Source: Eledone cirrhosa (Eukaryota). From it: a stretch of DNA of 64,000 bases. The stretch lies in the NCBI GenBank assembly GCA_964016885.1, contig OZ024741.1, forward strand, positions 330,274,001 to 330,338,000, read 5' to 3'. Shown here piece by piece: positions 2,581 to 62,163 of this stretch. The notes below the pieces were generated by a model, which worked only from the letters and a program-made list of their open reading frames with translations, did not search any database and was not told the DNA's origin. A program made the translations under genes and the position numbers. Position 1 is the stretch's first letter. Each line of letters opens with the position of its first letter.

Positions 2581-2908
2581 CCCCGTCCCTCCACCACCAC
2601 CCCCACCCGATCCACACCACCCCGTTCTATGTAAAGTTATGTTGGTGCCGCGCCATCGAGGCCGAAACAAATGAGATCGTGTAGGTGTCACGACAAAAAA
2701 ACACACAGTCCACGCTGTAATGTGGCCGTGTAGGCAACACGGTAAAAACCTCCCAGACCCACACTGTAAATGTGGTTGGTGTTAGGAAGGGCATCCAACT
2801 GTAGAAAACCTGCCAGACAGTCCTATGCGAGCAAGACAATCACTCTTGCCTCAAGTGGGACTACCCCCGTCCAAACCCATGCAAGCGTGGAACACGGACG
2901 TTAAACGT

Positions 2909-2940
<32 letters not shown>
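2581..2940 (+). mobile_element. 5'-truncated RTE LINE 3' UTR (or SINE-like unit) insertion with (GAT)n tail
   Basis: Absent in copy B (empty site TACACGCATATACTC near 19441). Flanked by ACGCA duplication (2576-2580, 2941-2945). Reverse complement of ~28519-28871 with few differences. Confidence 0.92.
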
Positions 2941-2941
<1 letters not shown>

Positions 2942-3625
2942 CGCATATACTCATACATACACACACATGTATTATATCCTAAGCTGTTTATGAACATGCT
3001 TAACCCTTTTGATACCAAACTGGCCCTGGTCCTATGATACAAGACAATTTGCATTAAAGTGTATTTATATTTATCAATAAAACCTTCAATCATAATTTTA
3101 TGTAAGAACCTTTGTTAAATGATGTTCCAAATACCAAATAAATAACGAAAAAGTTAGTTATGTCACTAAATCTCTCCAAATTCTTGATTATTTTCAATAT
3201 CATTTGAAAATAATAGGTTGTTCCTGACATGAGTTATATGGCAATAAAAAGGTCAAATTTGATACATACACACTTAGGTTGCAGAAACCAAAAGGTATTC
3301 ATTAATTCCAGTTTCATCATGAACAAATTATATGTGTGTATGTGTATCCAGTATTGGAGCACAGTTAGCTGGGTGTCCAAGATTGCGGCTATGGTTAGTT
3401 GGGTATTATAAATGATTAAGTTATAACGTACCATCAGCTCTAATTTCAATGGGGCCCTCATGGCAAATAGATGTCGTAGGAAAGTGTGCATCTGCCAAAA
3501 CTGAAATCAAACAAAGGAAATAATTACAAGATTGACTTCTCTAGGTATCAAGGTTTTTTAAATCTCTTTTTCCAATGTTTTGTTTCTGAAAATGTAGTGA
3601 AGCCTACACACACACTCTTGTGACG

Positions 3626-3877
3626 CTAAACTCCGCCAGTTGCAGACTGCGCATTAACACGTGATATCTCTCTCCCCAAAGTTCGATGACCAGCAGCAGA
3701 GTTCAAAGAGCAAAGATCAAGTCCAGTCCATAAATTGACATTGTCAAGCCATCGTTTTGGCTGCCGGTCTCTGCTTCTCTTACCAGCCAGCCTTCCTTCC
3801 AGGCATAACCTACTCATACCACGAGTTGATCTTTTTATATGGCCGTATAGTTTGAGTACTCTTGACATTAATAACAA
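3626..3877 (-). mobile_element. LINE ORF2 C-terminal remnant (duplicated at 20129-20380)
   Basis: Translation LKLYGHIKR...EGRLAGKRSRDRQPKRWLDNV resembles the post-RT C-terminus of RTE-type LINEs. Confidence 0.7.
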
Positions 3878-4559
3878 AACAAAAACAACTATAGTTCGAT
3901 GTTCCCCACCAAACTTTGTTTACCAATAACTTTCTTAATAATGCATATTTTGCAAAGATACTCTTTCAAACATGTAGATTACAATTATTATGATGAAAGT
4001 ATTTTTTAAACAAATTGTCATTTTCACTCATGGAAATACGAAAGTTATCTGTGATCTTAAAACGAAGGAATACCTTTTTTCTAACAAGCGCGAACTAGAA
4101 TGTTTTAGTATTTTGCTAGCAAAACTAAATAGTTGTCTGACAAATTCTAAGGCGTTCTTTCCTAAATGTAAATTCAAAATGATATATTAGTAAAAGAAAA
4201 TGTTTAAAATTAAGTTATGTTTGGTAATCATTAAAGAAAACATGAAGGGAAATAAATTATTGTAACTGATTTAAATGAATGTAAAATGAAATTATTGTTT
4301 GGAGATTGTTGTTTGCTTAAAAGAAAAGAACACCGATTCTAAATACCTATATCATCTCCATGTCCCATAGAAGCTAGAACTTGAAGTAAGCCAGGACTTA
4401 TTATGCAAGGAATTCCTTTCAACGGCATTGTTTCTGTTGAATGAGAAATATTAAATATACAAAGTGCGAATTGGGGGAATAATAATCGAATAACGTGATA
4501 ACTTGCAGTTATTTCCCTTGAAGGAGGCGTCTTACTGCGTCAACATAACCAGCCTTTGA

Positions 4560-5482
4560 AAGGAGTACACGCTGACAGAAATCGCATGTCTAACTACTGA
4601 TGACTTCATCAAGACTGTGAGCACAGCCCTTCCGGAGCTGACGGTTCAGTTTTATGTTCTAGACGAAATTCCTCAAAGGTTTTGCAACTGCCTTTTATGC
4701 TCTTTCTCCACTCAGCCCTATTTAGAACTATCTCCTCCCAGTTGTCTATAGCAAATGCCAGCTCTTTGAGATTGTTCTTGATGCTGTCCCTGAATCTCAT
4801 TTCGGTTTGTGTTGAGGTCTTTTTCCAAGATGGAGCTCACTGTAAAAGAGTTGCTTCGGGATCCTGCTTTCTTTCATGTGGACGATATGTCCTGTCCAGC
4901 ACATTTGAGATGTTACTTGCGACTCAACACTTGGACATTCTGCTTTGTTAAGAACATGTATGTCTTGCCATTTGATGTTGAATATGTGCCTTAAACATTT
5001 CTGCTGAAAAGGACCATGCAATTTGGTGTGTTTGCAGAATAGCGTCTAGGTTTCGGCGGAGTATAAAAGAGCAGACAGAACACATGATCTATACGCACAC
5101 GCCTTGGTACTGTTGGTAACGTTGCGATTTGCCCAAACTCTCTTTTCCAATTTTCTGGATGCGCAGATGTATTTCAGCATCTAAGGAGCCATCATTTGAG
5201 AGTGTGCTACACAAGTAGAAAATATATTTACTACTCCCAGCCTGGTTCCATCAACCATGATATTGGGTTCAGTATATGGTTCTCCAGGAGCAGGAGTAAA
5301 CATTACATTGGTCTTTTTAAGGCTGATTGTAAGCCCAAATGCTGTACACGAGGATGAGAAATGGTCCATAATGTGTTGCATGTCAGCTTCTGTGTGTGCT
5401 AGAAAACCAGCGTCGTCGGTATAAAGAAGGTCTCTGATCAGAACTTGAAAAGTTTTTGTCTTGGCATTAAACCTTCTTAAGT
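4560..5482 (-). mobile_element. RTE (BovB-like) LINE 3' part, cut by the duplication junction
   Basis: Fragments FGLTISLKKTNVM, QKCLRHIFNIKWQD and WTGHIVHMKESRIPKQLFYSEL, with frameshifts. Confidence 0.85.
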
Positions 5483-8519: not shown

Positions 8520-8866
8520 GGAGGCACATGGCTTAGTGGTTAGAGCATTGGCCTTGCAATCGAAAGCTCGTGAGTTCAATTCTCAGACCGGGTGATGTGT
8601 TGTTTCCTTGAGCAAGACACTTTATTTCACATTACTCCAGTTTACTCAGCTGTAGAAATGAGATGATAGGGACTGGGGTCCATATCATTCCACTGCAAAG
8701 TGGTCGTGGAGGTGCCACGGCAAAAAAGCACCCAGCACTCACTGTAAATGAGGTTGGTGTTAGAAAGGCATCGAGCTGTAGAAATTAAGCCAGAATCAGT
8801 TCCCGTCCCACCCTTGCAAGCAGGGCAAAAGTGGACGTAAAATGAAATGATGATGATGATGATGAT
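8520..8866 (+). mobile_element. SINE family A (tRNA-derived, RTE-type tail)
   Basis: A-box TGGCTTAGTGG, B-box GAGTTCAATTC, core CCTTGAGCAAGACACTT and (GAT)n tail. Near-identical copies at 38974-39288 and 53439-53778. Confidence 0.9.
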
Positions 8867-16868: not shown

Positions 16869-19800
16869 TTTTTCCATGGTTGTATGGGTCCTGAGTACAG
16901 CATTGCTCCACTTTTCGCATTGCTGTGTCATCTCTGTCTCAGCAATTTGAGGTCAGCTCTCACCTTTGGCCAGGTTTTTCTTGGTCTACCTCTTCTGCGA
17001 CTTCCTTCCACCTCGATTTCTTGGTACTTCTGCACCAAATGAATATGAAATAAATCACCCATTTTAAAAGGTTTCTGTTTAAAATCTTCCAACGTAATTC
17101 TATATAAGAACCCCTTGTAAACAACTATTTTAGAAATAAAATAGATAATAATTTCAATAAATCCCTCCAAATTCTTCCTTAAGTAATTGAAACAGACGCA
17201 TGTCATTAGAAATGTGGTCATTTTTCCAAAATCAGTAAATGTATATATATAAAATAGATTTTACCCTGTATGGACCACAGCAAATGCTTTTTTAGCTTGT
17301 TCATAGAATTTAAATCTTTCAACTGGGATCAATATAATCTGCAAATATATACATATATGTTATTATTATCATTGTCATCCTTAGTTTTATATCTGTTTTT
17401 TTATACAGCATGGGTTTAATGAAACTTTTTGAACAGTTGTTTTTAAACAAGATACAAAGATCTTAACACATCTCAACACTGAGAAGTGGAATCTGATTAT
17501 GTACAACGTACACAAATATCACTGCCTGCGAAGAGAAGAGACAAACACACACATATACATGTATCATCATCATTTTACATAAGTTTTCCATGCAGGAATG
17601 GGTTGTTATAGTCTTGGACAAGATATTGTTAAAGAACCACATCTTCCTCATATGTTCCATGTTTTGGCATTGTTTTTATGGCTGAGCACCATTCCTAATG
17701 CCAACAATTTACAAACCTTGCCTCAATGCTTGCAACACAGCAGATTCTGCTAAATGCATCCAAATGCCACGAGGTGGTGTTAAATCCTCATCATAGTCAT
17801 TGTCATAGTTTTAATGTCTGTTTTCCCTGCTAGGCAGGGTTGGACAGGTCTACATATACCAACTCAGTACTGAAGCGGAGTTACTGATCTCTCAAACAGG
17901 CCAGGGTTCTGTGTCTCACTTATGTACGGGCTCATGTTCTACCAAGTGCACAAGAGAGATTGCCATGTCTTTGACACAACTGAGGATCCTCCCAACCCTT
18001 TGTTTGGCAAGATTTCTTCCTAACACCAACACCCACTTTACAGTGTGTACTGGGTATGTTTATTGAGTAGATCATCAAACACTAGCGAGGCTGTCATGTC
18101 TTTGACATGACTGAAGGGTCCTTCCAACCCTTTGTTTGGCTAGCCCTCCGCAGCTGGATGCCCTTCCCATTACCAACCACTTCAGGGTTGTTAATGTGCT
18201 GTTGGAAGTGGGGGGAATTTACCATCCAATTGGACCACAGCAAGTCAGAACAAATACTGCAGGGTATTTCATCCGGTGCTTTTGCTTTTAATTATGAGGA
18301 CAACACTTGCTGCATACATTATTTCATATATTACTCACAACTCTGTTCTCTGCAGCTTCTAAAATGTTCTGGTATTCATCCCAGTGAGGCAAAGGCAAAT
18401 GTTCATCTTCACCAGTTTTCTCCATCACAAAAGCCTACAAGTAAACAAACATATCAAATAAACACCAATTGTAGCCAATCTCTTGGATTTTAACAAGGCA
18501 CTGTAAAGATAAAGTTGATATAAAGAATGATGTGCTTATGTGTGGAGAGGTGCTTGTGTGCAGAGATGCTAAAAAAAGACGGAAAAAGAAGTTGGTGGCA
18601 ACTTCTTTTTCTGTCTTTTCATCTTCACATGAACATGAACACATTATTTTAAATCATCGTCGTCATCATTGTTTAACGTCCATCTTCAACACAAGCAGGG
18701 GTTAGACGGTTTTGTTCCATTTGATGCGGGAATGGTTGGGAGACCGTGTCTCGCTTATACGGAAATGTTTCTGGAAGGGTTTTTTTACAACTGGATGCCC
18801 TTCCTAACACCAACCACATTTATAGTGTGGACTGGGAGTATTTTTACCGTGTCTCCTACACAACCACCTTAAATGTTTGCAAATATATATATATATAATG
18901 GTTTCTGATTTAGGCATAAGGCTAACAATTTTTGGGGAAGGAAAGTTGATTAAATTGTCCCCAGTGCATTACTGGTGCTTTATTGTCATCCCTTATTATG
19001 AAATGAGAACTTGAAATTTACAGCTCACACTTTTGCAAGTTTAGCTGGCTTTCTATGAAGTTGTAATGATAGGGGACCTCAGTTCTCCCATGTTGCTAGA
19101 GCCCAGGTTTAGCTGGCCTCCAACAAGAGTTTCCTCGAGTGTTTTAATAATGGGCCTCAATTCTATCATGAGAAGCAACATGAAATGAAGTATCAATGTG
19201 CCACCTGGTCCAGGAATCAAACTGTTGACCTTGTGATTGCAAGCCAAAAGCTATATCCACTAAGCCTTACATCTTCACTATATCGACTGCAGGTAAAAAT
19301 GTTTCTTACTGAATCATCATAGGTAACATCCAATGGTAGCAGCTGCAGTATAGCCTTTAATAAATCAGGTATTTTGTGACCTGGAAAAAAAATGTATTTA
19401 TATATATATATGTGTATGTGTGTGTGTATATATATATACATACACGCATATACTCATACATACACACACATGTATTATATCCTAAGCTGTTTATGAACAT
19501 GCTTAACCCTTTTGATACCAAACTGGCCCTGGTCCTATGATACAAGACAATTTGCATTAAAGTGTATTTATATTTATCAATAAAACCTTCAATCATAATT
19601 TTATGTAAGAACCTTTGTTAAATGATGTTCCAAATACCAAATAAATAACGAAAAAGTTAGTTATGTCACTAAATCTCTCCAAATTCTTGATTATTTTCAA
19701 TATCATTTGAAAATAATAGGTTGTTCCTGACATGAGTTATATGGCAATAAAAAGGTCAAATTTGATACATACACACTTAGGTTGCAGAAACCAAAAGGTA

Positions 19801-21976
19801 TTCATTAATTCCAGTTTCATCATGAACAAATTATATGTGTGTATGTGTATCCAGTATTGGAGCACAGTTAGCTGGGTGTCCAAGATTGCGGCTATGGTTA
19901 GTTGGGTATTATAAATGATTAAGTTATAACGTACCATCAGCTCTAATTTCAATGGGGCCCTCATGGCAAATAGATGTCGTAGGAAAGTGTGCATCTGCCA
20001 AAACTGAAATCAAACAAAGGAAATAATTACAAGATTGACTTCTCTAGGTATCAAGGTTTTTTAAATCTCTTTTTCCAATGTTTTGTTTCTGAAAATGTAG
20101 TGAAGCCTACACACACACTCTTGTGACGCTAAACTCCGCCAGTTGCAGACTGCGCATTAACACGTGATATCTCTCTCCCCAAAGTTCGATGACCAGCAGC
20201 AGAGTTCAAAGAGCAAAGATCAAGTCCAGTCCATAAATTGACATTGTCAAGCCATCGTTTTGGCTGCCGGTCTCTGCTTCTCTTACCAGCCAGCCTTCCT
20301 TCCAGGCATAACCTACTCATACCACGAGTTGATCTTTTTATATGGCCGTATAGTTTGAGTACTCTTGACATTAATAACAAAACAAAAACAACTATAGTTC
20401 GATGTTCCCCACCAAACTTTGTTTACCAATAACTTTCTTAATAATGCATATTTTGCAAAGATACTCTTTCAAACATGTAGATTACAATTATTATGATGAA
20501 AGTATTTTTTAAACAAATTGTCATTTTCACTCATGGAAATACGAAAGTTATCTGTGATCTTAAAACGAAGGAATACCTTTTTTCTAACAAGCGCGAACTA
20601 GAATGTTTTAGTATTTTGCTAGCAAAACTAAATAGTTGTCTGACAAATTCTAAGGCGTTCTTTCCTAAATGTAAATTCAAAATGATATATTAGTAAAAGA
20701 AAATGTTTAAAATTAAGTTATGTTTGGTAATCATTAAAGAAAACATGAAGGGAAATAAATTATTGTAATTGATTTAAATGAATGTAAAATGAAATTATTG
20801 TTTGGAGATTGTTGTTTGCTTAAAAGAAAAGAACACCGATTCTAAATACCTATATCATCTCCATGTCCCATAGAAGCTAGAACTTGAAGTAAGCCAGGAC
20901 TTATTATGCAAGGAATTCCTTTCAACGGCATTGTTTCTGTTGAATGAGAAATATTAAATATACAAAGTGCGAATTGGGGGAATAATAATCGAATAACGTG
21001 ATAACTTGCAGTTATTTCCCTTGAAGGAGGCGTCTTACTGCGTCAACATAACCAGCCTTTGAAAGGAGTACACGCTGACAGAAATCGCATGTCTAACTAC
21101 TGATGACTTCATCAAGACTGTGAGCACAGCCCTTCCGGAGCTGACGGTTCAGTTTTATGTTCTAGACGAAATTCCTCAAAGGTTTTGCAACTGCCTTTTA
21201 TGCTCTTTCTCCACTCAGCCCTATTTAGAACTATCTCCTCCCAGTTGTCTATAGCAAATGCCAGCTCTTTGAGATTGTTCTTGATGCTGTCCCTGAATCT
21301 CATTTTCGGTTTGTGTTTAGGTCTTTTTCCAAGATGGAGTTCACCGTAAACCAGTTGCTTCAGGATCCTGCTTTCTTTCATGTGGACGATATGTCCTGTC
21401 CAGCACATTTGAGATGTTACTTGCGACTCAACACTTGGACATTCTGCTTTGTTAAGAACATGTATGTCTTGCCACTTGATGTTGAATATGTGCCTTAAAC
21501 ATTTCTGCTGAAAAGGACCATGCAATTTGGTGTGTTTGCAGAATAGCGTCTAGGTTTCGACGGAGTATAAAAGAGCAGACAGAACACATGATCTATACGC
21601 ACACGCCTTGGTACTGTTGGTAACGTTGCGATTTGCCCAAACTCTCTTTTCCAATTTTCTGGACGCGCAGATGTATTTCAGCATCTAAGGAGCCATCATT
21701 TGAGAGTGTGCTACACAAGTAGAAAATATATTTACTACTCCCAGCCTGGTTCCATCAACCATGATATTGGGTTCAGTATATGGTTCTCCAGGAGCAGGAG
21801 TAAACATTACATTGGTCTTTTTAAGGCTGATTGTAAGCCCAAATGCTGTACACGAGGATGAGAAATGGTCCATAATGTGTTGCATGTCAGCTTCTGTGTG
21901 TGCTAGAAAATCAGCGTCGTCGGTGTAAAGATCAGAACTTGAAAAGTTTTTGTCTTGGCATTAAACCTTCTTAAGT
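16869..21976. repeat. Segmental duplication, copy B
   Basis: Matches 1-5482, lacks the 2581-2945 insertion, and the RTE LINE continues past 21976 whereas it is cut at 5482 in copy A. Confidence 0.97.
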
Positions 21977-22810: not shown

Positions 22811-25599
22811 TTAGATCTCAGAGGAGTTACTGAGGATGTTGGTGGGCCGAAGACTTGGCATATAAAAGAGTAAAATGACTTCGAAAATAATCTGACGGAA
22901 GTTGTGAAAGTTGCATAAATATGTTTTATATATGTTTATATACATACATACATATGTAAAACATTCCAAAAATTCTGCATCTAATAACAGCATGTACACA
23001 TGTACAGATATGAAGCATATGCGCATGTACAAATATAACTCAAAACACACACATTCACACATACAACACCATCCATACCTGCATACACAGGCAGACATGC
23101 AGACATATCTACCTAGTTGATGTTGTTTAAATTCCAATGAGAGAGTCTTGAATCTATGTTAGAAACTGACTCTCTCTCTATTGGAAAACATTTATGAAAT
23201 TGTAAAACCAGAAGAACATATATATATATACATACATGATGGCTGCCCCTTTGTTATCGAGTATGGCCATTGCACGAAAAAAAAAAAGACAAAAAGAACA
23301 CAGATATATTAATAATTAACGGTGCTTTAATCGAATGTGGCTTTTTAGCCCAGCCAATGATCTAAAATGTCTTGCACAGAGTTGGCAACCAAAACATTCA
23401 CTGGCAATAGCCGGCTAGAGAGGTTTCCCAGTGCTCCTCACGATGTTATTATCTTTTGCTCTGGTGTTGTTTGTCCACCCCTTTCACTTGCCTTTTGTTG
23501 TATGTGGTCCTAGATGTATATATTACTTGCTTGTATGTTCTTTTCTTGTTTTCATTTGTAATGTTATTTATATAACTGTGAATAAGCGGTTCAACTAAAT
23601 GAGATCGATAAAGCAAGTTTCTCTAGAGCACTCTCCATATCTGTTTTTTTCCTCATTTTCCCTGTTGCTTCCTCTCTTTACTCTTTACTTTCTATTTAAC
23701 TTCTATTTCTAACTCTATCTTTTGATGAAGGACTGGTTTCTAAAACATTAAGACTATCATCCTGGTATTTCATGTATTAAACTAATGTGTTTCTTCCATG
23801 TACTGTGCCATTTGTTTTGTTATTTTTGTTATTTCTATTTACCTTTTACATATATATCATCATCATTGTTTAACGTCCATCTTCCATGATAGCATGTTTA
23901 GAAGGGTTTGTCCCAATTGAGGCAAGATTGGTCGAGTGACCGTGTCTAGTTTGTATAGAACCGTTTCTGGTTGGTTTTCTACGGCTGGATGCTCTTCCTA
24001 ATGCCAACCATATTTACAGTGTGGACTGGGAGATTTTTTACTGTGGCTCCTACACGACCACTTTATAGTGTGGACTGACATAACTTTATATATATATATG
24101 TGTGTGTGCGTATGTGTGCGTGTATGTGTGTAACTGGAATAACCAATGGGTAGAATTGGTTATTCCAGTTAGCAAATCATGATGTAATGGTAAGAATAGC
24201 ACTCTATGTTATGCAACTCATCCAGCCTTCTGTTGTTTTGAATATATCACCATTGTTTTTACGTTTATTTTACAAACTTGGGTTTATTAGACAGGTTGTC
24301 ACAGGCCAGACAAACAGGTTAGACTGCTGTGTCTGGCTCATACATTCCATTTTGGTATGGTTTCTATGGCTGGATGCCTTTACTAATAACAACCGCTTTG
24401 CAGCATGTATAGGATTTGTTTTCTTGTGGCACCACCACTACCATCTCACAGGGTGGACTAGGTGCTTTTTTTGTGGCAGCAGCGCAACCGCTTTACAGTG
24501 AGGACTTAGTGCATTTTATCGTGACACAACCACTTCTATCTTCCAGTGTGGTCTGGTGTCACATTTTTTTGTGATATCCATACAACCACATTTCAAGACT
24601 AATAGTCTTGCGTCCTTGGCCAGTTTGGAAGGACAATGACAGATGTGGTGATGGAGGTTGGTGTAGACGAGAGGGTGATGTGGGTTGCCTGTAATTAGAG
24701 GGAGGGGTGAGTGACTTTTGGGTAAGTGAATGACGTCTGTCAATAATGTGGGGCTGGTGGAGGTGAGTATGCATTACCATATTGGCACGGTTGCGTGCAG
24801 AAGGGAATATAAGTATGTAAAAGATAAACAGAAATAACAACAGAAACGGTTCAGTATATGGAAGGAATATATTAGTTTGATGCTTGCAATAGCAGGGAGA
24901 ACGTTTCAGACACTAGTCATTCATCAGAAGAAAGAATGAGAAATTAGAAAGATTGTGGGGACGGGCAGGACGAAATCAGAAAAAATACTTTTAGAGAAAA
25001 ATAAGAAGCCCATTCATGTTGCCATCCAATATTTACATATATATATATAGCAATGATTTCAACTAATGTTCTGATGTTAGCAGAGTAGGTCAGTGTGATC
25101 ACACATGCTGACCTCTGCATAACATGGTACTCATTTTCTTTTGTTTCAAGATCTGACGTCACTGAGTCTGGAGAAACTGGCCAACTAGAGGTTATTTAAA
25201 ATAACATGTTCCCCAAGTCATTCTTCTCTAGTCTCTCAAAGGACGCACACCAAAAACAGTTTGTTCCAGCAAGCAGGGAGATGTAGCACTTAGCCGAATA
25301 CTCTGGCCCTCTCAACAAGGGCCATCTAGCTCTATTCCCATTGGCACCTTGATAAAAGTAAGTCCACACACAATTGTAAATATCATCTTTCAAACTATTG
25401 CACACACATATACACATTAACACAGTCTTGTTTTCTATTTTATCAACTTGCCTTGTAGCAGGTTATCAAATTAATAAATATATTTAAGTAGCAATTTGGT
25501 TTTTATTTCATTACCTATGTGATCAGGGTAAATCACTTACCCAAGGAATCATCATCATGAAGACTGTTGTTCACTTGCGCACCTGCAATCTCTGGTCAC

Positions 25600-28518: not shown

Positions 28519-29952
28519 ATCATCATCATCATCATCATCATCAACGTTTAACGTCCGTGTTCCACGCTTGCATGGGTTTGGACGGGGGTAGTCCCACTTG
28601 AGGCAAGAGTGATTGTCTTGCTCGCATAGGACTGTCTGGCAGGTTTTCTACAGTTGGATGCCCTTCCTAACACCAACCACATTTACAGTGTGGGTCTGGG
28701 AGGTTTTTACCGTGTTGCCTACACGGCCACATTACAGCGTGGACTGTGTGTTTTTTTGTCGTGACACCTACACGATCTCATTTGTTTCGGCCCGGATGGC
28801 GCGGCACCAACATAACTTTACATAGGACGGGGTGGTGTGGATGGGGTGGGGGTGGTGGTGGTGGGACGGGGTGTATTTTGTTAGAGATGCCTACTGGCAA
28901 GGCGGGTCTTCTCTGTTACTGAGTACCGCCAAAGGTCTCGGTCCAGTGACATTGTCTTGGAGAGGTGTAAGTGTGTGAGGTCGGAGTTTATCAGCTCGTC
29001 CCAGGTTTTTCTAGGTCTGCCTATTCCGTGGCTACCGTCTATCTTTATTGCCCTGCACTTTGTTATACAGCTATCGACTTTCATGCGCATCACGTGTCCA
29101 TACCAACGTAGCCTTCTCTCGAGTAAACAACATCTGATCCCTCTTATCTCTAATTTTTTTTTTCCTTAGTTCGTTTATGCTTTGCCGTTCACGTATATTA
29201 CTGTTACACATCCAGCGGAGCATGCAAGCTTCGTTCCTCTCTAGTCTGCGTATATCCTCTGCACACAATGCCCAGGTCTCACTGCCATGCAACATTGCTG
29301 TTCGTATGCAGGCATCGTACAACCTGCCTTTCATTTTTAGGGAGAACCCTTTAGCAGCTAATAGTGGTATAAGCTCTCTGAACTTTTTCCAACCAGTTCT
29401 GACTCTAGCTACAGTACTTTCAGAGCACCCTCCCCCACTGCTGATTTTATCGCCCAGGTAACGGAAGCTGTCCACTATTTCTATAGAACCCTCTGCGCAA
29501 TTGAAAGAGCTAGTATTGTGTGGGCACTTGCTGCTACTTATTGCACCAGAACACCGGCCACATGTAAAATCTATGTTCTTAGTTAGCTTACCTGTGATCC
29601 CACTACATCTTTTATGCACCCATACTTTGCATTTAGGACACAAAATGGAGTTTCTACCTACGCCTTTCCTACACACCGAGCACGACCATTTCCCAGAAGG
29701 GACCGCCGCCTTGTTTTCTTTCCTACAAACTAGAACTTTGGTCTTAGCCAGGTTAATTTTAAGTCCTTTTGACTCTAGGCCGTGCTTCCATGTTTGGAAT
29801 TTCTTCTCTAGCTCGGCCATTGATTCCGCTATGAGTGTCAGGTCGTCTGCGTATAGGAGTTCCCATGGGCAGCCTGTCTTGAACTCCTCTGTTATAGCCT
29901 GAAGGGCAATAATAAATAGTAGGGGGCTGAGAACAGAGCCCTGATGGACGCC

Positions 29953-29955
<3 letters not shown>
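28519..29955 (-). mobile_element. Young 5'-truncated RTE LINE with a PHD finger inside the RT, inserted in (TA)n
   Basis: GVHQGSVLSPLLF, LLYADDL, C4HC3 insert, FRYLG, MLHGSETW. One apparent frameshift at the poly-T near 29155. ~360-nt 3' UTR and (GAT)n tail. Lies in ATP6V0E intron 1. Confidence 0.95.
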
Positions 29956-29995
<40 letters not shown>

Positions 29996-30345
29996 AAAAA
30001 TAAACGGAAAAAAATATAACAGGCGATGAAGTACAATGAAGATATATATTAGTTTCACGCTTAACGTAGTAGGAAAAGTCTTAAGGTTTTAGACACTACT
30101 TCATCACAAAATAGAAAATAGAACAAAAAATTAAAGAATTAGAAAAATAGAAGAGTGAGCAGGGGCAGAAACGAAAAAAGTTTCTTCGAGAAAAAGCAGG
30201 TCTGTTTATTTCACCATCTATATTCATATATTATGCCTTAATAGTGAGTCTTGTTACTTTGGAGTTTCAACTGTGCACTCACATATGTGATTAGCTTGTT
30301 AGTTTTGTGAAGCTGGGTCTGCACTTGAAAGATTTTTTTGTGGTT

Positions 30346-37302: not shown

Positions 37303-37723
37303 TCATTAAACAATCAATGTAAATTTGTTTTTCGTGTATACACTGCTTTGTTAAAAATGTAGCTAGTCCTCCATTTTGCAGTTAAAAGTTAAACTTTTAG
37401 AAGTATAAATCTTTGGATAAATGCATCCAGTGAACTCAGTAAAGTTAATGGCGTTAGGACCAGTTGTAGACACCATGCCAAAGATATGATGTATGAGCAA
37501 GACATAATATATCGTCCTCATCATTAAACATGGTTGGTGTTAGGGAGGGCATCCAGCTGTAAAAAACGCAGCCAAAATACAGTCCTGCTTGAGCAAGACA
37601 TGGCACGGCCAACTGGCCAGACTTGTCTCATAATGTGGATGACCCATCTAACCCATGCAAGCATGAAAAAAATACATGTTGACTAGTGATGATGATGATT
37701 ATATATATATATATACATATGTA

Positions 37724-37818
37724 CAGGGTGTCTCCCAAAAATGCATACACACTTTCATTACCTGTAATATTTATTAGAATGCTGTTGAAGTATGTATACA
37801 ATCTTTTGGGATACCCTA
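37724..37818. mobile_element. Tc1/mariner-type MITE
   Basis: TA|CAGGGTGTCTCCCAAAA...TTTTGGGATACCCTA|TA imperfect terminal inverted repeats. Confidence 0.75.
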
Positions 37819-37930
37819 TATATGTATGTATATATATATATATATATATATGGATACCCTGTATATATATATATATATATATATGGATACCCTGTATGTA
37901 TATATATATATATATATATATATGGATACC

Positions 37931-37983
<53 letters not shown>

Positions 37984-37984
<1 letters not shown>

Positions 37985-38781
37985 GGATTCTATAAAATGC
38001 ACACAATGCAGATCCTGGGTACACAAGAGATGTAGCGGGATAGCAGGCAAACTAACAGGTAGGGAGAAATATGTATGCAGTAGATGTACAGGGAAATTAG
38101 ACAGGAGAAGTCGCACTGATAGACACATTTTTCAAATGCAAGAGGGCGCTATAGAAGTGGGGGATAGCTTCCGGTACCTAGGAGATCAGATTAGCATGGG
38201 AGGAGGGTGTTCCGAGGCCATAGTATCTAGAATAAGGACGGGTTGGAAGAAGTTTAGGGAGTTGCTTCCTCTGTTGACGAAGAAGGGGTTTCTCCCTGCG
38301 TATGAAAGGCCGGTTGTATGATGCCTGTGTGAGGAGCGCGATGCTGCATGGTAGTGAGACATGGGCAGCAACTGCAGAGGATATGTGACAGCTGGAGAGA
38401 AATGAGGCAAGCATGCTCCGTTGGATGTGCAGTATAAATGTGCGTGAACGACCCAGCATAAATGTGTTGAGAGAGAAACTGTGTCCGAGAGGGATAGAAT
38501 GTAGTGTACGGGAGAGGAGACTGAGGTGGTATGGACATGTGATGCGCATGGAGGATGACCGATGGGTGAAGAAGTGCCAGGAATTGCCAGTTGAAGGAAG
38601 ACGTGGTAGAGGTAGACCACGAAAAACATGGGTGGAGGTGGTGAGAACAGACCTCAGATCATTGAAGCTCACGGTGGAGATGACGAGGGACCGTGACAAG
38701 TGGAGAGATGCTGCGCTGAATAAGACCCATCCCACCCTTGCAAGCAGGGAAAAGCGGACGTATGATGATGATGATGATGAT
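37984..38781 (+). mobile_element. 5'-truncated RTE LINE (PHD-bearing family) with short 3' UTR and (GAT)n tail
   Basis: [17 protein letters not shown]...CSRC, FRYLGD, RLRWYGHVMRM and GRGRPRKTW. Confidence 0.95.
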
Positions 38782-39957: not shown

Positions 39958-42900
39958 TATATATATGGATACCCTGTATATATGTATGTAAACCCTTGCA
40001 AGTATGGAAAAGTAGGCATAAAACGGTTATATATAATACATTATATATGTATCATCATGATCATTTAAGATCAATTCTCCCCACTAGCAAAGATTGTACC
40101 CTGCTCTCTAGTCATCCACCCCATTCATATCCCTGATTCCTCCTTCACCACCCAACACATGCCAGCAGTGACATGGGCACACCTATGCTCACTCCTTTTC
40201 TTCAAGACCATCTTGTGACCCAACAGTCATTCTTTCTTACTCACATTACTGAAACCCCATTCCAAACATAGTACGTTAAAAAGTCATCTATACCCCTCAA
40301 TGTACTACCAGTCATCATTTACACTTGTTAAGGTCACTTCTCTTAGGGAGGGGAAAGTTGATTAAATCAACCCCAGTGCATTACTGGTACTTTATTTTAC
40401 TGACCCCGTAAGGATGAAATGCAGAGTTAACCTCAGAATGGGCTGTAACTATATGTTGCAAAGCATGTTGTCTGACGCTCTACCGATTACTGCCTTAACG
40501 TCCTTATATAATAAACAAAATTGAAGAAAGGATAAGAATTCAACAAACGAGTTAATGGTTTTTAATATAATTTATTATAACAAAGCTACACAATGATATA
40601 TGTAAAACTTATTATGTAATGATAGCGTATTGGTATCATATAATGAGGTAGTGTGCACATAAAGCTCACTTTTTTTTTAATGATTAGAAAAGTTACTTGA
40701 TATAAAGAATCCATTTACAGTGATTGTTTTTGTTTATAAATTTTATTTACACTGGATTAATTGGCTACATAAACATTTAACATGCATCCATGGGCTGTAA
40801 ACTCCTGATAGATTATAAGGGTTTGGGGGGAGCACACACACACCCACCATCATGACATATGGTGTGTCTTTGGCATTTTATTACCTGGTCTGATGGAGTT
40901 CATTTTTCTCCAGGTCTGAACACAGCCAATTTCTTCAAGAGAATAGAAAGGGGGTAAAAGAGATGTAGAGGAAGAATCAGTCCCAATCTTGAACTAGTAC
41001 TTTATTGCTCTCCAAGGAATCAAAGTTGTCCTTAGTGTGATTTGAATTCAGTACACAAAGAGCCAGAATGAATACAGTAAAGCATTCTATCCGATGTTCT
41101 AACGACAATTCTGCTAATTTAATACCATTTAACATACATACATACAAAGTATTCTAAATAGATTTGGTTTTCAAAATCTGAACAATATAAAGTAGGAATA
41201 AAGAGAAAGGAAGCAGCAACAGCAAATATATATGTTTATCTGTGTCACAGATATAGTATATATATATATCAGTGAAAGATACACCAAATATATCTATCTC
41301 TCAGTCACAGATACAACATATATATATACCAATGCTAGCATAGGGAAATGGACGTTAAACGATGATGATACATATATGTATCAGTAAATATGTGTTTTAG
41401 TCGTTCAATCAACTTTATGGCCTGCCCATAAAATGTGAAAGTGGCTGAGCATTCCACAGACATGTATCATTAATGTAATTCTCAGGCAGATTCAGTGTCA
41501 TGCTGAATCTCTCTGAAATTTAACTTTGTTAAACGTACGTGTCTGTGGAATGTTCAGCCACATGCGCTACAATAGAAAATGGTCTGTATCTGCAATTCAA
41601 AGGATCAACCTTGTCATGCTGAATCTCCCTAAGAACTACATTAAAGATACACGTTTGTGGCATGCTCAGCCACTTACATGTTAATTTCACACACACACAC
41701 ATATATATTAGATGCATCTCAGTTTCGAAAATTGCCATCCCTTGACCTTTTTCTCATACATGGGTGGCACGAACATGACCTTTTAACCTTTCCAAGGACT
41801 TATATTCCTTTCCGCATATGCTGCAGCAAAACAAAAAAGAAAAGCCATACTCATGCAACACATGCGAAAGTCGTTTAGATCAAGGGATGCCTATGCTTGA
41901 AGATTTTTTAAGTAAAGAGAGGACCAATCCCATTCTCAACAATAATGACAGATATTCAAAAAGAACAGATCAACATCATTGGTTGCCATCAAGTTGCAGG
42001 TTTTACATCAGTTTTCCTTCTAGAACGATGTCCTCACAAGAACTAGAGGTCTCTCACTCCCGATGGGCTAACCGTGCGCTCGGACACCAAATCGAGTATT
42101 GCATATATATACTGTTAGATGGTTGTTTTGGTACCACAATAAAAAGCATTCAGTTCATACTGTAATGTGGTTGCCATTAGGAAATGCATCCAGTCGTAGA
42201 AACCAAGCCAAAATACAGATCTGTATGAGCAAAACATGGTCTCCAGACCTGACTTGTCGCATAATGTGACAATCCGGCTAACTCGTGCAAGCGTGGAAAA
42301 ATACACATTAAACAATGATGATGATACATACATACATAGATATATCTGAAATGTAAATGACTACATATAACAGTTAAGAAAAACAGATAAATCAGCTGTT
42401 TTTTCCAATTCCAGAGGCACTTTACCTAATTTTCTCAATTATTTATAGTGATCAACTATTATTATATTAATTTAAGTTGGAACGACTAAATTTAAATATT
42501 CCCAATCTTTCTTCTAGCAACAGTCTTATAATTTAAAATCTTCTAAAAGACAGCAATTGGTGACCAGGGACCCCTTAGTGTTATGGTTAACACATTCTCC
42601 CAGCATCCAAGGTTAGACACCTCATAGACATCTATGTCCACTCTTCTGTTCTCATGAGTACATTACTAATAAAGTACACGAACCATCACTGAAGACATTC
42701 TTCTCATTTTTCAAATATATTAAGCAAAGAATTTCTGAAATTCAGATGACACCGCTTAGAGTGAAAGCAGAAATTCTTTGCTTAAACTTTTAATCTGTAC
42801 TAATAATAAATATTTGCTCTACAGATTTATATATACTTATATATATATATACAACCCTTATTGAGTCCTCTATGGATTTTGGTCTTTGTATTTATTATTA

Positions 42901-44869: not shown

Positions 44870-45353
44870 CACCTTAGCTGGACAGCAGTGAAAACATGTC
44901 CCCAGACCCTCAGCTGTTTGTTAACCAGTCATCTTAGTTGAACAGCAGTGAAAACACGTCCCTCAGCTGTCTGTTAGTCAGTACCACCTTAGCTGAACAG
45001 CAGGGAAAACATGTCCCCAGGCCCTCAGCTGTCTGTTAGTCAGTGTCACTTTTGTTGAGAAGCAGTGAAAACATGTCCCCAGGCCTTCAGCTGTCTGTTG
45101 GTTAGTGTCACCTTTGCTGAGCTGCAGTGAACAAGTCTCCAGCCTTCAGCTGTCTGTTAGTCAGTGTCACCTTAGCTGAGCAGTTAAAACATGTCCCTGC
45201 TCCTCAACAGTCAGCTGTCTGTTAGTCAGTGTCACCATAGCTGAGTAGCAGTGAACATGTCACCAGCCCTGAGTTGTCTGTTAGTCAGTGTCACCTTAGC
45301 TGAGCAGTGAAAACATGTCTCCAGCCCTCAGCTGTCTGTCAGTCAGTGTCACC
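44870..45353 (-). repeat. Eight-copy ~60-bp minisatellite just downstream of the ZNF-A stop codon
   Basis: Plus-strand unit CACCTTAGCTGAGCAGTGAAAACATGTC(C/T)CCAGCCCTCAGCTGTCTGTTAGTCAGTGT. Confidence 0.92.
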
Positions 45354-45468: not shown

Positions 45469-46857
45469 TTAATCTGATTGTTTGTTGTGTCCAGCTGTAC
45501 ATGAAGGTATACTGTGCCCTGCTGTACATGATGATATGTTATGTCCCCCCGTACATGGGGCTATGTTATGTCCCCCCGTACATGGAGCTATGTGATGTCC
45601 AGCTGTACATGAGGCTATGTTGTGCCCACTAATACATGGAGATATATCATGCCCTCCAGTACATGGCGAAATATTGTGTCCAGCAGTACATGTAGATATA
45701 TTGTGTACCCCTGTACACGAGGGTACATTGCCTGCAGTTACCCAGCTGGTTGTTGTCCATGATGTAGGAGAGACAGGAAACCCTCTCACCCATGCATGAT
45801 TATGATCTGGTCTGGGAGCGACCATTTGATGATGTGTACACATTGACCCCATAACAGGAGCAGTAGTAACAGCTACTGCCTGTTGCAACTCACTACTGAC
45901 ACTACCTACAGGAATGGTTTCCAATTGGATTTGGTTTGGTGTTTGATGTTGTCTCTGAGACATAGCAGCATCATTTGATGCTCCCGTGTGGGAATGGGCA
46001 TGTTTTTTAAGATGTGATCGCTGAGAAAATGCCTTCTTGCATACTTCACATTTATAAGGTTTTTCTCCAGTGTGTGTGTGTTGATGTTTATTTAAATGTG
46101 TTCTTTGGCTGAATGCTTTTTGACAAACACTGCACTTAAATGGTTTCTCTCCAGTATGAACACGTTTATGATTATTCAGATGAGTTCTCTGACTGAAAGC
46201 TTTCTTACACACATCACATTTAAATGGCTTTTCTCCAGTGTGAATCCTCTCATGGTTGTTTAGGTGATCCTTCTGTGCAAATGCTTTGTTACAAATCAAA
46301 CAAATAAAAGGTTTAATACCGGAATGAATCCGTTCGTGGCTGTTAAGGTGTGTCCTCTGACTAAATGCTTTGCAACAAATAGAACACAGAAAAGGTTTTT
46401 CCCCTGTGTGAGTCCGTTCGTGGTTATTAAGATGTGATTTCTGTGAGAATGATTTCCGACAAATCAAACATGCAAATGGTTTTTCTCCTGTATGAATACG
46501 TTTATGGCTGTTCAAGTGTGTTCTTTGGCTGAATGCTTTACAGCAGACTTCACAAGTATATGGCCTTTCACCGGTGTGTGTATGTTCATGATTCTTTAGT
46601 TTATCTCTTTGACTAAATACTTTCCCACAGAAGGCACAGTTAAAGTGTTTTCCTGTTGCTGAAGCTAATTCATGCTTATTTAGATAAGCCTTTAGAGTAA
46701 ACCCTTTACGGCATACATCACATTTATACGGTTTCTTTGTGTTATGAGCAACATTCTTATATGCATGAGTCTGATCAGTTGATGGGTATGGGATTCCACA
46801 ACTGTGATAGTTGTATTGGTTCCCAAAACTTGGATAAACTGGTTGGCCAGAATACAT
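45469..46857 (-). CDS. C2H2 zinc-finger protein A (1 degenerate + 8 canonical fingers, C-terminal Cys/His nonapeptide repeats)
   Basis: Intact 462-aa ORF with TGEKP linkers. Polypyrimidine/CAG acceptor upstream at 46993-46995 (- strand). Confidence 0.95.
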   Translation of the reverse strand: MYSGQPVYPSFGNQYNYHSCGIPYPSTDQTHAYKNVAHNTKKPYKCDVCRKGFTLKAYLNKHELASATGKHFNCAFCGKVFSQRDKLKNHEHTHTGERPYTCEVCCKAFSQRTHLNSHKRIHTGEKPFACLICRKSFSQKSHLNNHERTHTGEKPFLCSICCKAFSQRTHLNSHERIHSGIKPFICLICNKAFAQKDHLNNHERIHTGEKPFKCDVCKKAFSQRTHLNNHKRVHTGEKPFKCSVCQKAFSQRTHLNKHQHTHTGEKPYKCEVCKKAFSQRSHLKKHAHSHTGASNDAAMSQRQHQTPNQIQLETIPVGSVSSELQQAVAVTTAPVMGSMCTHHQMVAPRPDHNHAWVRGFPVSPTSWTTTSWVTAGNVPSCTGVHNISTCTAGHNISPCTGGHDISPCISGHNIASCTAGHHIAPCTGGHNIAPCTGGHNISSCTAGHSIPSCTAGHNKQSD

Positions 46858-48091
46858 CTTCCTAGCGTCATAAACTCAACATACATTCATTAAACTCCTA
46901 TAAGAATCTTCTGCAATTATTTACTTTTGGCAAAAAGTAGGACAAAACTTCTCAGCTTCCAATATCGACAGCAATGATTTTCAGACTTTACGCTGAATAA
47001 TATAAAAAAAAAAAAATCATTATTTATATTAATCAATATACAATGCTGAAAAAATAAAATAAAATTTCATAAACAATGTGCAATTATGGCTGTGGGCAGT
47101 GAGGTTAAGGAGTTTGCTTCACAATCAGATAGTTCTGGGTTCAGTCTCTTTGTGTGGAATATTGAGCAAGTATCTTGTACTTTAGCCTTGGGATGAGTAA
47201 TGTTTTGTGATTGAAATTTGGTAGATGGAAACAGCAGAAAACTGTCAAATATATCATCATTGATTTAACGTCCACTTTACCTGTTAGCACAGCTTGGATG
47301 GTTCTACATAAACCATGCCAGTACTTATGCAGGGCTACTGATCTCCCAGACAGACCGAGGGATCTGCATATCGCTTATGTATGGTTTCCCATTCTACTGA
47401 GTGCACAGGAGAGGTTGTCATGTTTTTGACACAACTGAAGAGTCGTGTGTTGATATCTGTGTTTGTCCCATAATTTAGCGGTTCAACAAAACGAGATTGA
47501 TAAAATAAATGCCAAACTTGAAATCATAAGTGCTTGGGGGGGGGGGGGGGGGGGGTCAATATGATTGATGAAATCAATGTGATGCTCCAAAACAGCTAGT
47601 CTGATCACTGGACCCACAAAATAATAAAAGAATGCAAGTAAAATTATACAAAATTAAACATTAATTAGCCTTATCTTTAATTAGATGTATCAAAAACAAA
47701 TATATATATATATATAAACACACACACACATATAATTTTTCAATAGTAGTTATATTTATGACAGAAATATTACTTGTTTATTTAGCAAGGCATGAGACCA
47801 CATCACAGTCGATATTCACAGCCTAACCATAACCTTTTTCATACCAAACTATTTGAAACTGGTTCTGTTACAAAACTGTTTATTTTGAAGTGTTTATATC
47901 TATCTAAAAACCTTCCATCATAATTGTATGTAAGAAATTTATTTTAAAGTGTTTATATATTTCTACCATAATTGTATTTAATGAAGAACCTTCAGTAAGT
48001 TATGATCCAACTTAATGTCAAAATTGGATTAAATCACGATTTAGTGAGTAAATATATATTTTTGCAAGTCAAATAAATATTCATAGATATT

Positions 48092-58309: not shown

Positions 58310-60915
58310 ACAGTGATATTGACAATGACGATGATTACTTATTTTATCACTGTCTTTTTGTTGCATTGTTAGGTTCCAGGATATAGACTCAGATACATAC
58401 ACACACAAATATATATATACATATATCATCATAATATATATATATTTACGTGATGGGTTTCTGCTGTTTCCACCTACAAAAATTCCACTTACAATTCATT
58501 GGTCAAGCTGTAGCTGAAGAAAGATGCTTGCCCAAGGTGTCATGTGAATGATGTAGTTGCAAAGTGAGCTCCTTTACCACACCTAGCTTTCTATTACTCT
58601 ATAACCAAGTCACTAAAATTAAATATTTTTTCTCCATATTTTTTTCATTGTTCTGGTATGGAATAATAATGGTTTTATTTTTGATAAGATTTTTTATGAT
58701 ATGAGACTTAAAGCATGAGAATTGTCTGATTTTAGAAGAAAGTTTATTAGTAATAGTAGTAACAACAGCAAGAAACTCTTGGATGAGCTGGACAGCAAAT
58801 CTTCAGAGAAGAATCCTCCATCATGGAAGTGTTTTTACCCTTAACTCTTTACATTCTAAGAGGACTGAGACACATCCAGATTATGACTCTTGCATGCTCT
58901 TCTGCCAGTACCTTTAACTACTTGGGTATTGGAGACTTGTGTGTAGGGCATTTAAACTGTATGGAGATCGCTTCTGTTCCCCTTTGACCAGATTCATTTG
59001 GAACTCCTTTCCAGTGTTTCTGTTATTTATTACCTTTAGGGCTTTGGTCCTTTTTGACTAGAGATTGAAAGTTGTGTATTGAGATTTGCTTGTGTCTGTA
59101 GATTTGTTTACAAACCCTTCAGGCTGCTGACTAGACTGGTATATTTGTCAAGCTTGTTGATCTTCCATTCTATTTTCAAACGGCACAATGAAATCAATCA
59201 AATTCAGCTTTTTTTTTACGAGCCAGAGTGAAGTACTATGTCTGACATAGGAAAAAATGTTAAAGGGTAATGTAAAACTATAAATATTAGAAATATTAAA
59301 AATACAGTCCTAATTTAACTTCAAATAGATGTTAGAAAGAACTTTTTTTGTAACGATTATCTCCCCTTGCAATTATCTGAATTAATTTTATGCAGTTCCA
59401 AAAAAATATTCTACGGTTATGCAAGGGAGATAATCATCAATCGGTTAACTTGACATGTAATTTTTTAAAAACTTTTAAAAAAAAACAAGTGATGGGAACA
59501 AAGAAGACGGTGTTTATGGTAATGTGAAGACTTTTTATAAAGTTCCTAATCAGCATTCTCTACGCTTCCTGATTTTTTTTTATTGATTACAAATACAAAT
59601 ATCAATACCTCATTTAAAGATTTCCTTTTTTTACCTGTATCATTTCAATATTATTTATTCATTTTAATTAATTAAAAATTCTATTGCAATTAATCTAAAT
59701 ATATATATATTTATATATATAACATTATCTCCCTTTAGCAAACTTTCCTGATGTTTTATATATATGTTTTTTATTTAATTTAACTTATTTTACCAAACCC
59801 TTCGTTAACGAATGCACTTACATATACATAACATACATATATATCTACATATATATTATAAACACGTGTGTGTATGGCATGACAAAGAAAGTTGGTTTAT
59901 TGTGGAAATTCGGTTGATTATTATTCTACCAGCAAGACGCCAAAGAACTTAAAAAATATATTTCTCTCTGGGATCGGAAACAACAAGGCTTTGCTTTATA
60001 TATTGCCATTATTTTATAACGTAACCGTCTTTTTTTTTAAAGTGGATAGCTACTGCTCTTTTAAAACCAATTATGCTCTTATTAGCTCATTCATGACCAC
60101 GCCTCAAATCTACTGTTTAAAATGTTTTCATTTTAATATTGTAAATTGTCTTTTTTAACGATTTGGTTTCCTATTTAAAGTGAGAGGAAAAATTAGAAAA
60201 TCGTACAACGTTTTTTGTATTTTTATTTTTACATTAAAAATATATTTGAATATATTTTTAAAATAAGGTTGCTGCTAATTTCCGATTAATATAATTTTAA
60301 TACTTATACTGTACTGTACTGTCCGTTATTGTAAGTAACATTAATACACTCTACAGGCATTAAAGCAACAGAAAACTTTCTATATATATTTTGTGTAATT
60401 TGTATGTGATGAAAGTTATTGTGGAAGGTGTCTTGTTTCGATTAACTTACCGTTCCATACACTCTGTAGTGGGAAAGGATATATTTTTTGAAGAATAAGG
60501 AAGATGGCAGTGACTTCGAAGTTTCTGTGATTGCTTCTTTTGATATATATATATATACACACACACACACTCACTTATTTTGGGGGTTATTTTTTTTTTT
60601 TTTGTATCATTGTCTTTCTATCTCAACGATTTGATATTATTTTATTTTAAAGTTCCAACATAAGATATAATTTGTTTATGTGAGTGTCCTATGTTGTGGT
60701 TTTTTATTAGTTTGACAGTCTGTTCTCCTTTCGTTTCATAGTAGTTTAGGGAACGATTGATGTAGAATTAATAGAACTTTGTTTTTTATTATTTTGAATT
60801 TCTGCGAGGTTTTAAGAATGAAAATGTGGATATGTAATTTGTTTAAATAATTTTGTTTGCATTTGTATCAAGTCTATTAACTTTCCGATAGCGACATTAT
60901 CAGAAACTTAAAATC

Positions 60916-62163
60916 ATGAATTATAAACTCGATCAAAATTCTGGTAACTTGTCATATTTTATGAAATCCAAGACTTTGCACACAATTCCAACCATCTGTT
61001 CAATAGACAATAGCCAAAGCACATCTTCTGATTTTGGTAGTAAACCGGACAGTCTATACCCAAATAATGAAATTCTTAAATGCCCTATGAGACGAACTTT
61101 GGCCCTTGCCAAACCATTCAAGTGTGGGGTTTGCCGTAAAGGGTTTTCTCGTAAAATCAACCTTAATAATCATGAACGTACCGGAGCAAAGCACTTTTAT
61201 TGCACATTTTGCAAGAAGGCTTTCTCCCAGGAAATCATTTTGCGGAATCACGAGCGGACTCATACTGGTGAAAAACCATATCACTGTTCTTTTTGTGATC
61301 GTGCATTTTCTCAACTGACCGAATGGCGCAACCATGAACGTGTTCACACCGGAGAAAAACCATACGCCTGTTCTATATGTAACAAGGCATTTAGTCAACA
61401 GGGCAATCTCAAAATACATTTGCGAACTCACACAGGAGAGAAGCCATATACATGCGTTGACTGTGGTAAAACATTTAGTCAACGAACCAATCTAGACAAT
61501 CATAGACGTACCCACACCGGAGAACTTTTTAAGTGTGTCTTTTGTCCGAAATCATTTTCTTTGCTCATTAATCTCAAAAGCCACGAACGTATTCATACCG
61601 GCGAGAAACCATTTAAATGTTCCTTTTGTGCCAAAGTATTCAGTCAGCAATCAAGTTTACGTAGTCACGAACGAACTCACACTGGGGTGAAACCGTACCA
61701 GTGTTCTTTTTGCTCGAAAGCTTTTACACAACAGACAAACCTCCGTAACCATGAACGTATTCATACTGGAGAGAAACCATTTGATTGTTTCGTTTGTGGA
61801 AAAGCATTTTCCCAAGTAACCAACCTAAAGAATCATGAACGTACACACACAATTGAAGAACTGCGGAAATTGTCTGAAACTAAATCATCGACATCAGAAG
61901 CACTTTCTTCTCAGAATTCCCAGCATCCTCAACTACCAAATTCTAATCCTACCATCAGACCTCAACCTCTTAACATCCCCTCGACTTGGTTATCTTCTAC
62001 ATATCCCCACCATCAATTAACTCCAAACAACTGGGACAACAATTACAATTGGTCCCGTGGCTTCCCAATGCCGCAAAGATTAAATCCCGGTGGAAACACT
62101 ACTGCACCACAATTTATGCCACAACCACCAAATGCACATCATTCTACATGCAGTAGAGTCTAG
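60916..62163 (+). CDS. C2H2 zinc-finger protein B (1 degenerate + 8 canonical fingers, Pro/Asn-rich tail)
   Basis: Intact 415-aa ORF with TGEKP linkers. Candidate acceptor ctttccgatag ending at 60891. Confidence 0.95.

Follow-up and report, generated by a model that had tools for sequence, protein, structure and literature searches.

The locus examined here raises the question of what would be read by a zinc-finger array in which nearly every finger presents the same two contacts to DNA. The gene, ZNF-A, lies in a 64,000-nucleotide stretch of the 3.0-Gb genome of Eledone cirrhosa (contig OZ024741.1, positions 330,274,001 to 330,338,000; hereafter the window), and seven of its fingers carry Gln at helix position -1 and His at +3. 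In the initial annotation, this array was proposed to bind (TGA)n, the tail of the LINEs and SINEs found nearby, as part of a KRAB-independent system for recognizing retroelements. The reading favored here, which is drawn from sequence comparison and held with about even confidence, is that ZNF-A likely binds (NGA)n double-stranded microsatellites, within a set of paralogs each predicted for a different simple repeat.

ZNF-A is a tandem C2H2 protein with eight canonical CxxC-12-HxxxH fingers joined by TGEKP-type linkers (Pfam zf-H2C2_2, 205 bits), and it also contains short homopolymer runs (Table 1). An in-frame stop is present just 5' of the assigned start, and NCBI homologs begin at the same MY motif. 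As an in-frame stop separates the likely splice acceptor from the ATG, no N-terminal effector would be contributed from that acceptor. A Pfam scan of the 468-aa frame returned no accessory domain, with neither KRAB nor SCAN found, and no known repressor domain. The W-rich C-terminal region is, by its sequence, a candidate cofactor dock; it has no Pfam match, and all scores were below 0.8 in an Atlas search with the family motif or a homolog. The coding minisatellite that follows expanded out of the conserved "PSC" residues that close the C-terminal motif and displaces the usual tail of the family, and a 62-bp satellite of about 8 copies (44870-45353) is located just downstream of the stop codon. 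Protein searches with the C-terminal and N-terminal regions yielded no named ortholog, nor did a search with the finger region, the results of which are swamped by vertebrate KRAB-ZNFs; a PDB search returned generic zinc-finger arrays only. Neither transcription nor splicing of ZNF-A is evident in sequencing runs X4 and X6: the depth of X4 is equal on non-coding stretches and on the gene and thus provides no evidence of transcription, and run X6, which is only guessed to be RNA, contributes a contig spanning 46401-46894.

Table 1. Coordinates, strands and descriptions of the features of ZNF-A, its head-to-head neighbor and the (TGA)n tails (positions in the window).
Feature	Position	Strand	Description
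Open frame holding ZNF-A	45469-46875	-	468 aa
ZNF-A coding sequence	45469..46857	-	462 aa from MYSGQ start; apparently a single coding exon
Likely splice acceptor (T tract, CAG)	46992..47017	-	135 nt 5' of the ZNF-A ATG; from sequence only
Degenerate finger 0 (two Cys, one His)	46672..46722	-	Common to the subfamily; from an alignment of 7 members
Finger 1	46576..46638	-	Helix QRDKLKN
Fingers 2-8	45988..46554	-	All Q-1/H+3; +6 = S,N,S,N,N,K,K; predicted site (NGA)7
C-terminal W-x-R-x-F region	45706..45858	-	Family form W.NNY.W.RGFP..W; somewhat worn in ZNF-A
27-bp coding minisatellite	45524..45717	-	About 7 copies of a 9-aa unit; forms the protein end of ZNF-A
ZNF-B, head-to-head paralog of ZNF-A	60892..62163	+	Q-1/N+3 fingers, period-4 phase walk; best-fitting unit AAAT
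(TGA)11 tail of 355-bp element (SINE-A of the initial annotation)	2909..2941	+	
(TGA)6 tail, element with tRNA-like head (8529-8586)	8848..8865	+	3' end 88% alike to the LINE end at 38763
(TGA)8 tail, second copy of 355-bp element	28520..28543	-	At the end of a LINE fragment
(TGA)6 tail entered by LINE frame (38389 onward)	38763..38780	+	

All eight helices match those originally reported (45988-46638, minus strand), and the run of seven consecutive Q-1/H+3 fingers, F2-F8, is confirmed and far above background. Such runs reach at most 2 fingers among 20 non-family genes of the same genome (37/315 fingers are Q-1/H+3) and at most 3 among 120 proteins from the finger-region search (141/1431 fingers), and both control sets, chosen by likeness to ZNF-A or a paralog, lean towards Q-1/H+3-like fingers. 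Like fingers would also result from neutral run-on, the recent copying of one 84-bp unit, and TRF does detect an 84-bp periodicity with 69-73% matches. Among F2-F8, however, 58 of the 97 four-fold sites and 198 of the 380 same-residue codons differ, and identity at non-contact positions is 0.47. Because the silent sites have diverged to saturation, the uniformity of the contacts is no recent run-on; this origin is rejected for ZNF-A and is regarded as very improbable. On these sequence comparisons, the uniformity of the ZNF-A array is kept by selection, not by recent copying.

The same pattern extends across the family to which ZNF-A belongs. In comparisons of finger pairs within genes, the 43 family genes differ from 20 background genes, which are young, similarity-chosen and not age-matched to the family, in having more four-fold difference (0.66 vs 0.22), less non-contact identity (0.37 vs 0.80) and more frequent sharing of the same -1 and +3 residues (0.37 vs 0.05). 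This last value is also 0.37 in the 25 members that were found by the C-terminal motif alone, compared to 0.045 in the 120 control proteins. Contigs of relatives were available from three runs from other organisms, are about 90% alike, and cover F0-F2 and the N-terminus, not F3-F8. Among the differences listed for these contigs, 17/17 changed codons are silent in F0-F2 and 8/14 in the N-terminus; this count used 32 of the 40 listed differences, with 7 dropped as derived mainly from another X5 contig and 1 as upstream of the ATG, and 26 further differences fall outside the list. Among the paralogs, all 12 helices of L034 recur unchanged in Octopus proteins that are 97% identical overall, and 6 of the 7 helices of L050 are the same in Argonauta, where overall identity is 79%.

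By sequence, ZNF-A is a member of an old subfamily of about 43 genes that is common to octopods and cuttlefish. The family was collected with the C-terminal motif of a paralog, with finger 0 plus finger 1, and from earlier genome matches. Of 46 stretches found, 43 were kept; L065 has no array, L066 and L067 were moved to the background, and the duplicate loci L019, L021, L027 and L028 were dropped. This census is a lower bound. Clusters are situated on C2 at 233.7-237.6, 317.5-318.0, 329.6-330.35, 338.5 and 340.4 Mb, with further loci on C7 at 8.8-9.1 Mb and on two small contigs. A neighboring paralog in this set, L056 (G000:C2:330347500-330353000), is about 30 kb from ZNF-A, is weakly its sister (87/68), and has exchanged H+3 for Y+3 in three fingers. 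The W-x-R-x-F pattern is matched by 19/43 members and MYxxQ by 24/43, so membership is less secure for part of the set, including the RKDK group. When profiled against 1.84 billion proteins, the C-terminal motif gave nine matches. The named ones are from Sepia, Octopus and Argonauta, a range that spans octopods and decapods with no named match outside the coleoids; the others are three Logan records and a 1911-aa repeat protein without fingers, which is probably spurious. Two Sepia records are auto-named "KRAB" (record names only). Judged by the sequences of its arrays, the family is the opposite of young, diversifying zinc-finger clusters, as its contacts are frozen.

Since the contacts are uniform despite diverged silent DNA, the family likely reads simple repeats. 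With one finger per triplet, a uniform array would read a trinucleotide repeat, and four fingers, which span 12 bp or three tetranucleotide units, would in a four-finger cycle read a tetranucleotide. At least half of the fingers are Q/H (NGA) in 7 family genes and Q/N (NAA) in 13. When the module code is applied to -1 and +3 only, the median fit to a repeat of 1-4 bp is 0.80 in 42 family genes compared to 0.24 in 20 others. In a code-free test, lag 4 is the sole lag above 1 with p<0.05, which is reached by 10 of the 35 genes tested, and the silent difference at this lag in these genes is 0.41-0.60. Because 9 of the 10 fall in one clade, their p-values count as one event, not ten. For an (AAAN)n target, the non-A residue is expected to move from -1 in one finger to +3 in the next and +6 in the one after. 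In ZNF-B, L040, L060 and L070, the non-A residues found at -1 and +3 occupy one mod-4 class (p 0.02-0.05 each); six of the ten lag-4 genes (L036, L045, L006, L059, L007 and L062) did not pass this phase test or left it empty. At +6, a position not used in choosing the phase, Asn or Ser is present in 46/56 A slots of six genes vs 5/21 non-A slots, and Ile, Leu, Val or Met occupies 13/21 non-A slots; these six genes are close kin (five in one clade, 98/99) and represent about one evolutionary event, such that the pooled p of 3e-6 overstates the result.

Other members would extend the series. In L063, 7 of the 12 fingers match the engineered AGT helix HRTTLTN (PMC7317221, Table 1) at all four contacts, and (TAG)n arrays occur commonly in the genome sample. 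L069 and L052 have uniform H-1/T+2/N+3 arrays with Asp or Asn at +6 and would read (CAT)n or (AAT)n; on the CAT strand, L069, with its (HQTNLKD)n array, is an equally good candidate tail reader. NxFF fingers (N-1, Phe at +2 and +3; NQFFL), which are found in L031-L038, L043, L046 and L048 and are conserved in Octopus proteins, fit no decoded repeat and match no module examined. Alternating R-1/Q-1 fingers with D+2, K+3 and a hydrophobic +6 residue are observed in L033, L037 and L041, which could correspond to a 6-bp unit; these three were not taken as readers of the telomere repeat (TTAGGG), as lag 2 is not significant (p 0.11-0.14). No family member clearly fits (AT)n, despite this being the commonest microsatellite class, with 680 arrays in the 800-kb genome sample described below. 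Taken more broadly and more tentatively, coleoids may have kept, since before the split of octopods and cuttlefish, a lookup table for simple repeats of about 40 genes, in which the finger period is matched to the unit, each paralog has its own class (NGA, NAA, AGT, CAT or AAAN), and the W-rich motif leads to one cofactor. The code used for these predictions has low reliability: only 11/236 predicted motifs matched measured ones in PMC10547256.

For ZNF-A, taking Q-1/H+3 to specify an NGA-periodic site is correct under the code, and the predicted site, (NGA)7, stands as first given. The module examples offered for it were correct in part: QAGHLAS is the TGA module in Table 2 of PMC3607563, but QRAHLER was not found in that paper, in which GGA is read by QSGHLQR. 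The choice of T as the first base does not follow from these contacts, because the AGA (QLAHLRA) and GGA modules of the same table carry the same Q-1/H+3. When scored under published modules, the +6 residues of ZNF-A give AGA 15, TGA 13, and GGA and CGA 9 each; the margin of AGA over TGA does not settle the choice. The +6 residues in the 39 Q/H fingers of the family are N 15, K 10, T 9, S 3, V 1 and Q 1, and are thus mostly other than the Ser or Thr of TNN modules. N+6 is present in the AAG and AGG modules of PMC3607563 Table 2, and the preference of Asn+6 depends on context (PMC4330361). A calibration internal to the family, taken from the sequences of the period-4 paralogs with their Asn or Ser at +6 in A slots and Ile, Leu, Val or Met in the non-A slot, would associate Asn or Ser with A or with no preference and a hydrophobic residue with another base. 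As ZNF-A has no hydrophobic +6 residue, AGA or any NGA is likelier than TGA alone. ZNF-A is likely, from its sequence, to bind GA-containing triplet repeats, with (AGA)n bound at least as well as (TGA)n. The exact helices of ZNF-A were not found among the measurements in the available text of PMC4330361 or in literature on natural-finger modules.

The four (TGA)n tails named in the initial annotation all exist, although their coordinates required correction (e.g., 2909-2941 instead of 2919-2940). A short 3' end is common to all four tailed elements in the window, and two of the tails, with 6 units, miss the length of (NGA)7 by a single unit. The two copies of the 355-bp element are 98.6% alike, and the tRNA-like head of the element at 8848 scores 24.7 bits against Rfam tRNA, below the gathering score. 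The LINEs are presumably RTEs, a label taken from the initial annotation and a C-terminal motif. The label also leans on PMC9115989. In LINE frames 29071-30048 (minus strand) and 37683-38321 (plus strand), a PHD finger is detected (Pfam, 28.4 and 24.5 bits), which in the former directly follows the RT match. Single C2H2 fingers at 23322-23387 and 41760-41828 (minus strand), each followed at once by a stop, are probably LINE C-terminal fingers. Elsewhere in the window, positions 1-5482 and 16869-21976 are the two copies of a very recent duplication, spaced 16.9 kb apart, with identities of 100% over 2580 bp and 99.1% over 2543 bp. Only one copy contains the (TGA)-tailed 355-bp element (about 2581-2940), which was either inserted after the duplication or lost from the other. 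Genome-wide, 80 evenly placed 10-kb stretches (800 kb) were sampled, in which perfect arrays of at least 21 bp number more than 1,000 per Mb. This sample contains 33 (NGA)7 sites compatible with the code prediction for ZNF-A, compared to 0 in five base shuffles: 14 are tails, 7 are other TGA arrays, 11 are AGA and 1 is CGA, such that 12/33 are non-TGA arrays. Flanks are shared by 0/7 (AGA)>=5 arrays and 0/8 (TAG)n arrays in the sample, and these are therefore not tails. (TAA)n arrays (L071-L150) form two or more groups linked to elements, with one on each strand.

The tails are central to one alternative, in which ZNF-A is dedicated to retroposon surveillance: it would bind the (TGA)n tail of LINEs and SINEs and recruit a repressor, with its contacts frozen as the elements cannot drop the tail. 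That (TGA)n ends retroposons is borne out by the sample, in which a single shared 3' motif precedes 26/32 (TGA)>=5 arrays, and a (TGA)n binder would therefore sit mostly on retroposon ends; 11/22 copies of this motif carry at least seven NGA units. The (TGA)n tail would be an old target, which makes purifying selection compatible with its surveillance, and lepidopteran RTEs also end in (TGA)n (PMC2887409). Readers of NAA could act likewise, as 25/43 (TAA)n arrays in the sample share upstream flanks, and the 355-bp element, apparently inserted after a duplication that is 99-100% identical, would have been recently mobile. In contrast, there is no positive sign for T at the 5' base, the +6 residues of the Q/H fingers are mostly not TNN-like, 19/33 (NGA)7 sites are without the tail motif, the paralogs point to non-tail repeats, and ZNF-A lacks a known repressor domain. 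This alternative is considered distinctly unlikely. Two parts of the originally proposed tail system are retained, namely that most (TGA)n arrays are retroposon tails and that KRAB is absent, but its specificity for TGA is not, and the picture of a KRAB-like arms race is not supported, as the contacts are frozen rather than diversifying.

Rather unlikely as well is an ordinary conserved transcription factor, which would use three or four fingers on short GA-rich promoter sites, or bind RNA or protein, and owe its uniformity to ancestry and general constraint. General constraint fails to explain why the contacts are more alike than the non-contact positions, or why a period of four is accompanied by a phase walk over -1, +3 and +6. 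Such a factor would nonetheless fit with the frequent failure of codes for long arrays (PMC10547256), with Q/H genes that do not resolve in the tree and a Q/H state that may be ancestral, with poly-Q/H/N tracts, typical of activators, in many family members, and with the high expression of coleoid-wide C2H2 expansions in nervous tissue (PMC12513265). Under the favored reading of ZNF-A as a microsatellite binder, the array would read (NGA)n over about 21 bp, and each paralog would read its own simple-repeat class. The bound protein would dock a chromatin cofactor via the W-rich motif, which is the weakest step of the proposal, and the docked cofactor would set or protect the chromatin of repeat tracts. 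Retroposon tails would make up a large share of the bound sites without ZNF-A being dedicated to them.

The subfamily yields a sharp prediction of one repeat class per gene, and it separates an old, frozen class of zinc-finger genes from a young, diversifying one. If the reading is true, this would be a reader-series of paralogs built for microsatellites, in a genome dense with perfect arrays. Under the more tentative lookup-table reading, microsatellites, many of them retroposon tails, would form a regulated chromatin code in coleoid genomes. The subfamily also bears on the proposal in PMC10547256 that such proteins stabilize repeats and do not chase new transposons. KRAB-free targeting of transposons by octopus zinc fingers is already in print (PMC10547256, in which octopus ZNF motifs are predicted to be enriched in transposons), and single microsatellite-binding zinc-finger proteins are already known. 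In the literature searched, which left most subscription journals outside, no prior description was found of a paralog series with a finger period equal to the repeat unit.

Among known systems, the coleoid C2H2 expansions of PMC12513265 are similar in comprising clustered tandem C2H2 genes with members in octopods and decapods, and four cephalopod-wide clusters of 39-163 sequences are described. In contrast to the present analysis, the available text of that paper holds no binding-site or motif analysis (the word "motif" occurs 0 times) and calls the targets an open question. The KRAB-ZNFs and FiNZ-ZNFs (PMC10547256) share with ZNF-A tandem fingers, an arrangement in gene clusters and a possible action on repeats. 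Unlike them, ZNF-A is without KRAB, its contacts are uniform and conserved, and the site predicted for it is a simple repeat instead of a sequence unique to an element. The closest working model is mouse Zscan4, a genome-protecting C2H2 protein that acts on the microsatellite (CA)n (PMC7083622). Zscan4 differs in having a SCAN domain, which ZNF-A lacks, and in being mammal-specific, with one repeat class and no paralog series. GAGA factor is a zinc-finger protein that acts at GA repeats, and both it and CLAMP carry low-complexity regions. Drosophila CLAMP is likewise a zinc-finger protein acting at GA repeats (PMC4945028). In contrast to ZNF-A and its paralogs, CLAMP and GAGA factor have a dinucleotide target, belong to an unrelated lineage, and form no family in which the finger period is matched to the unit length.
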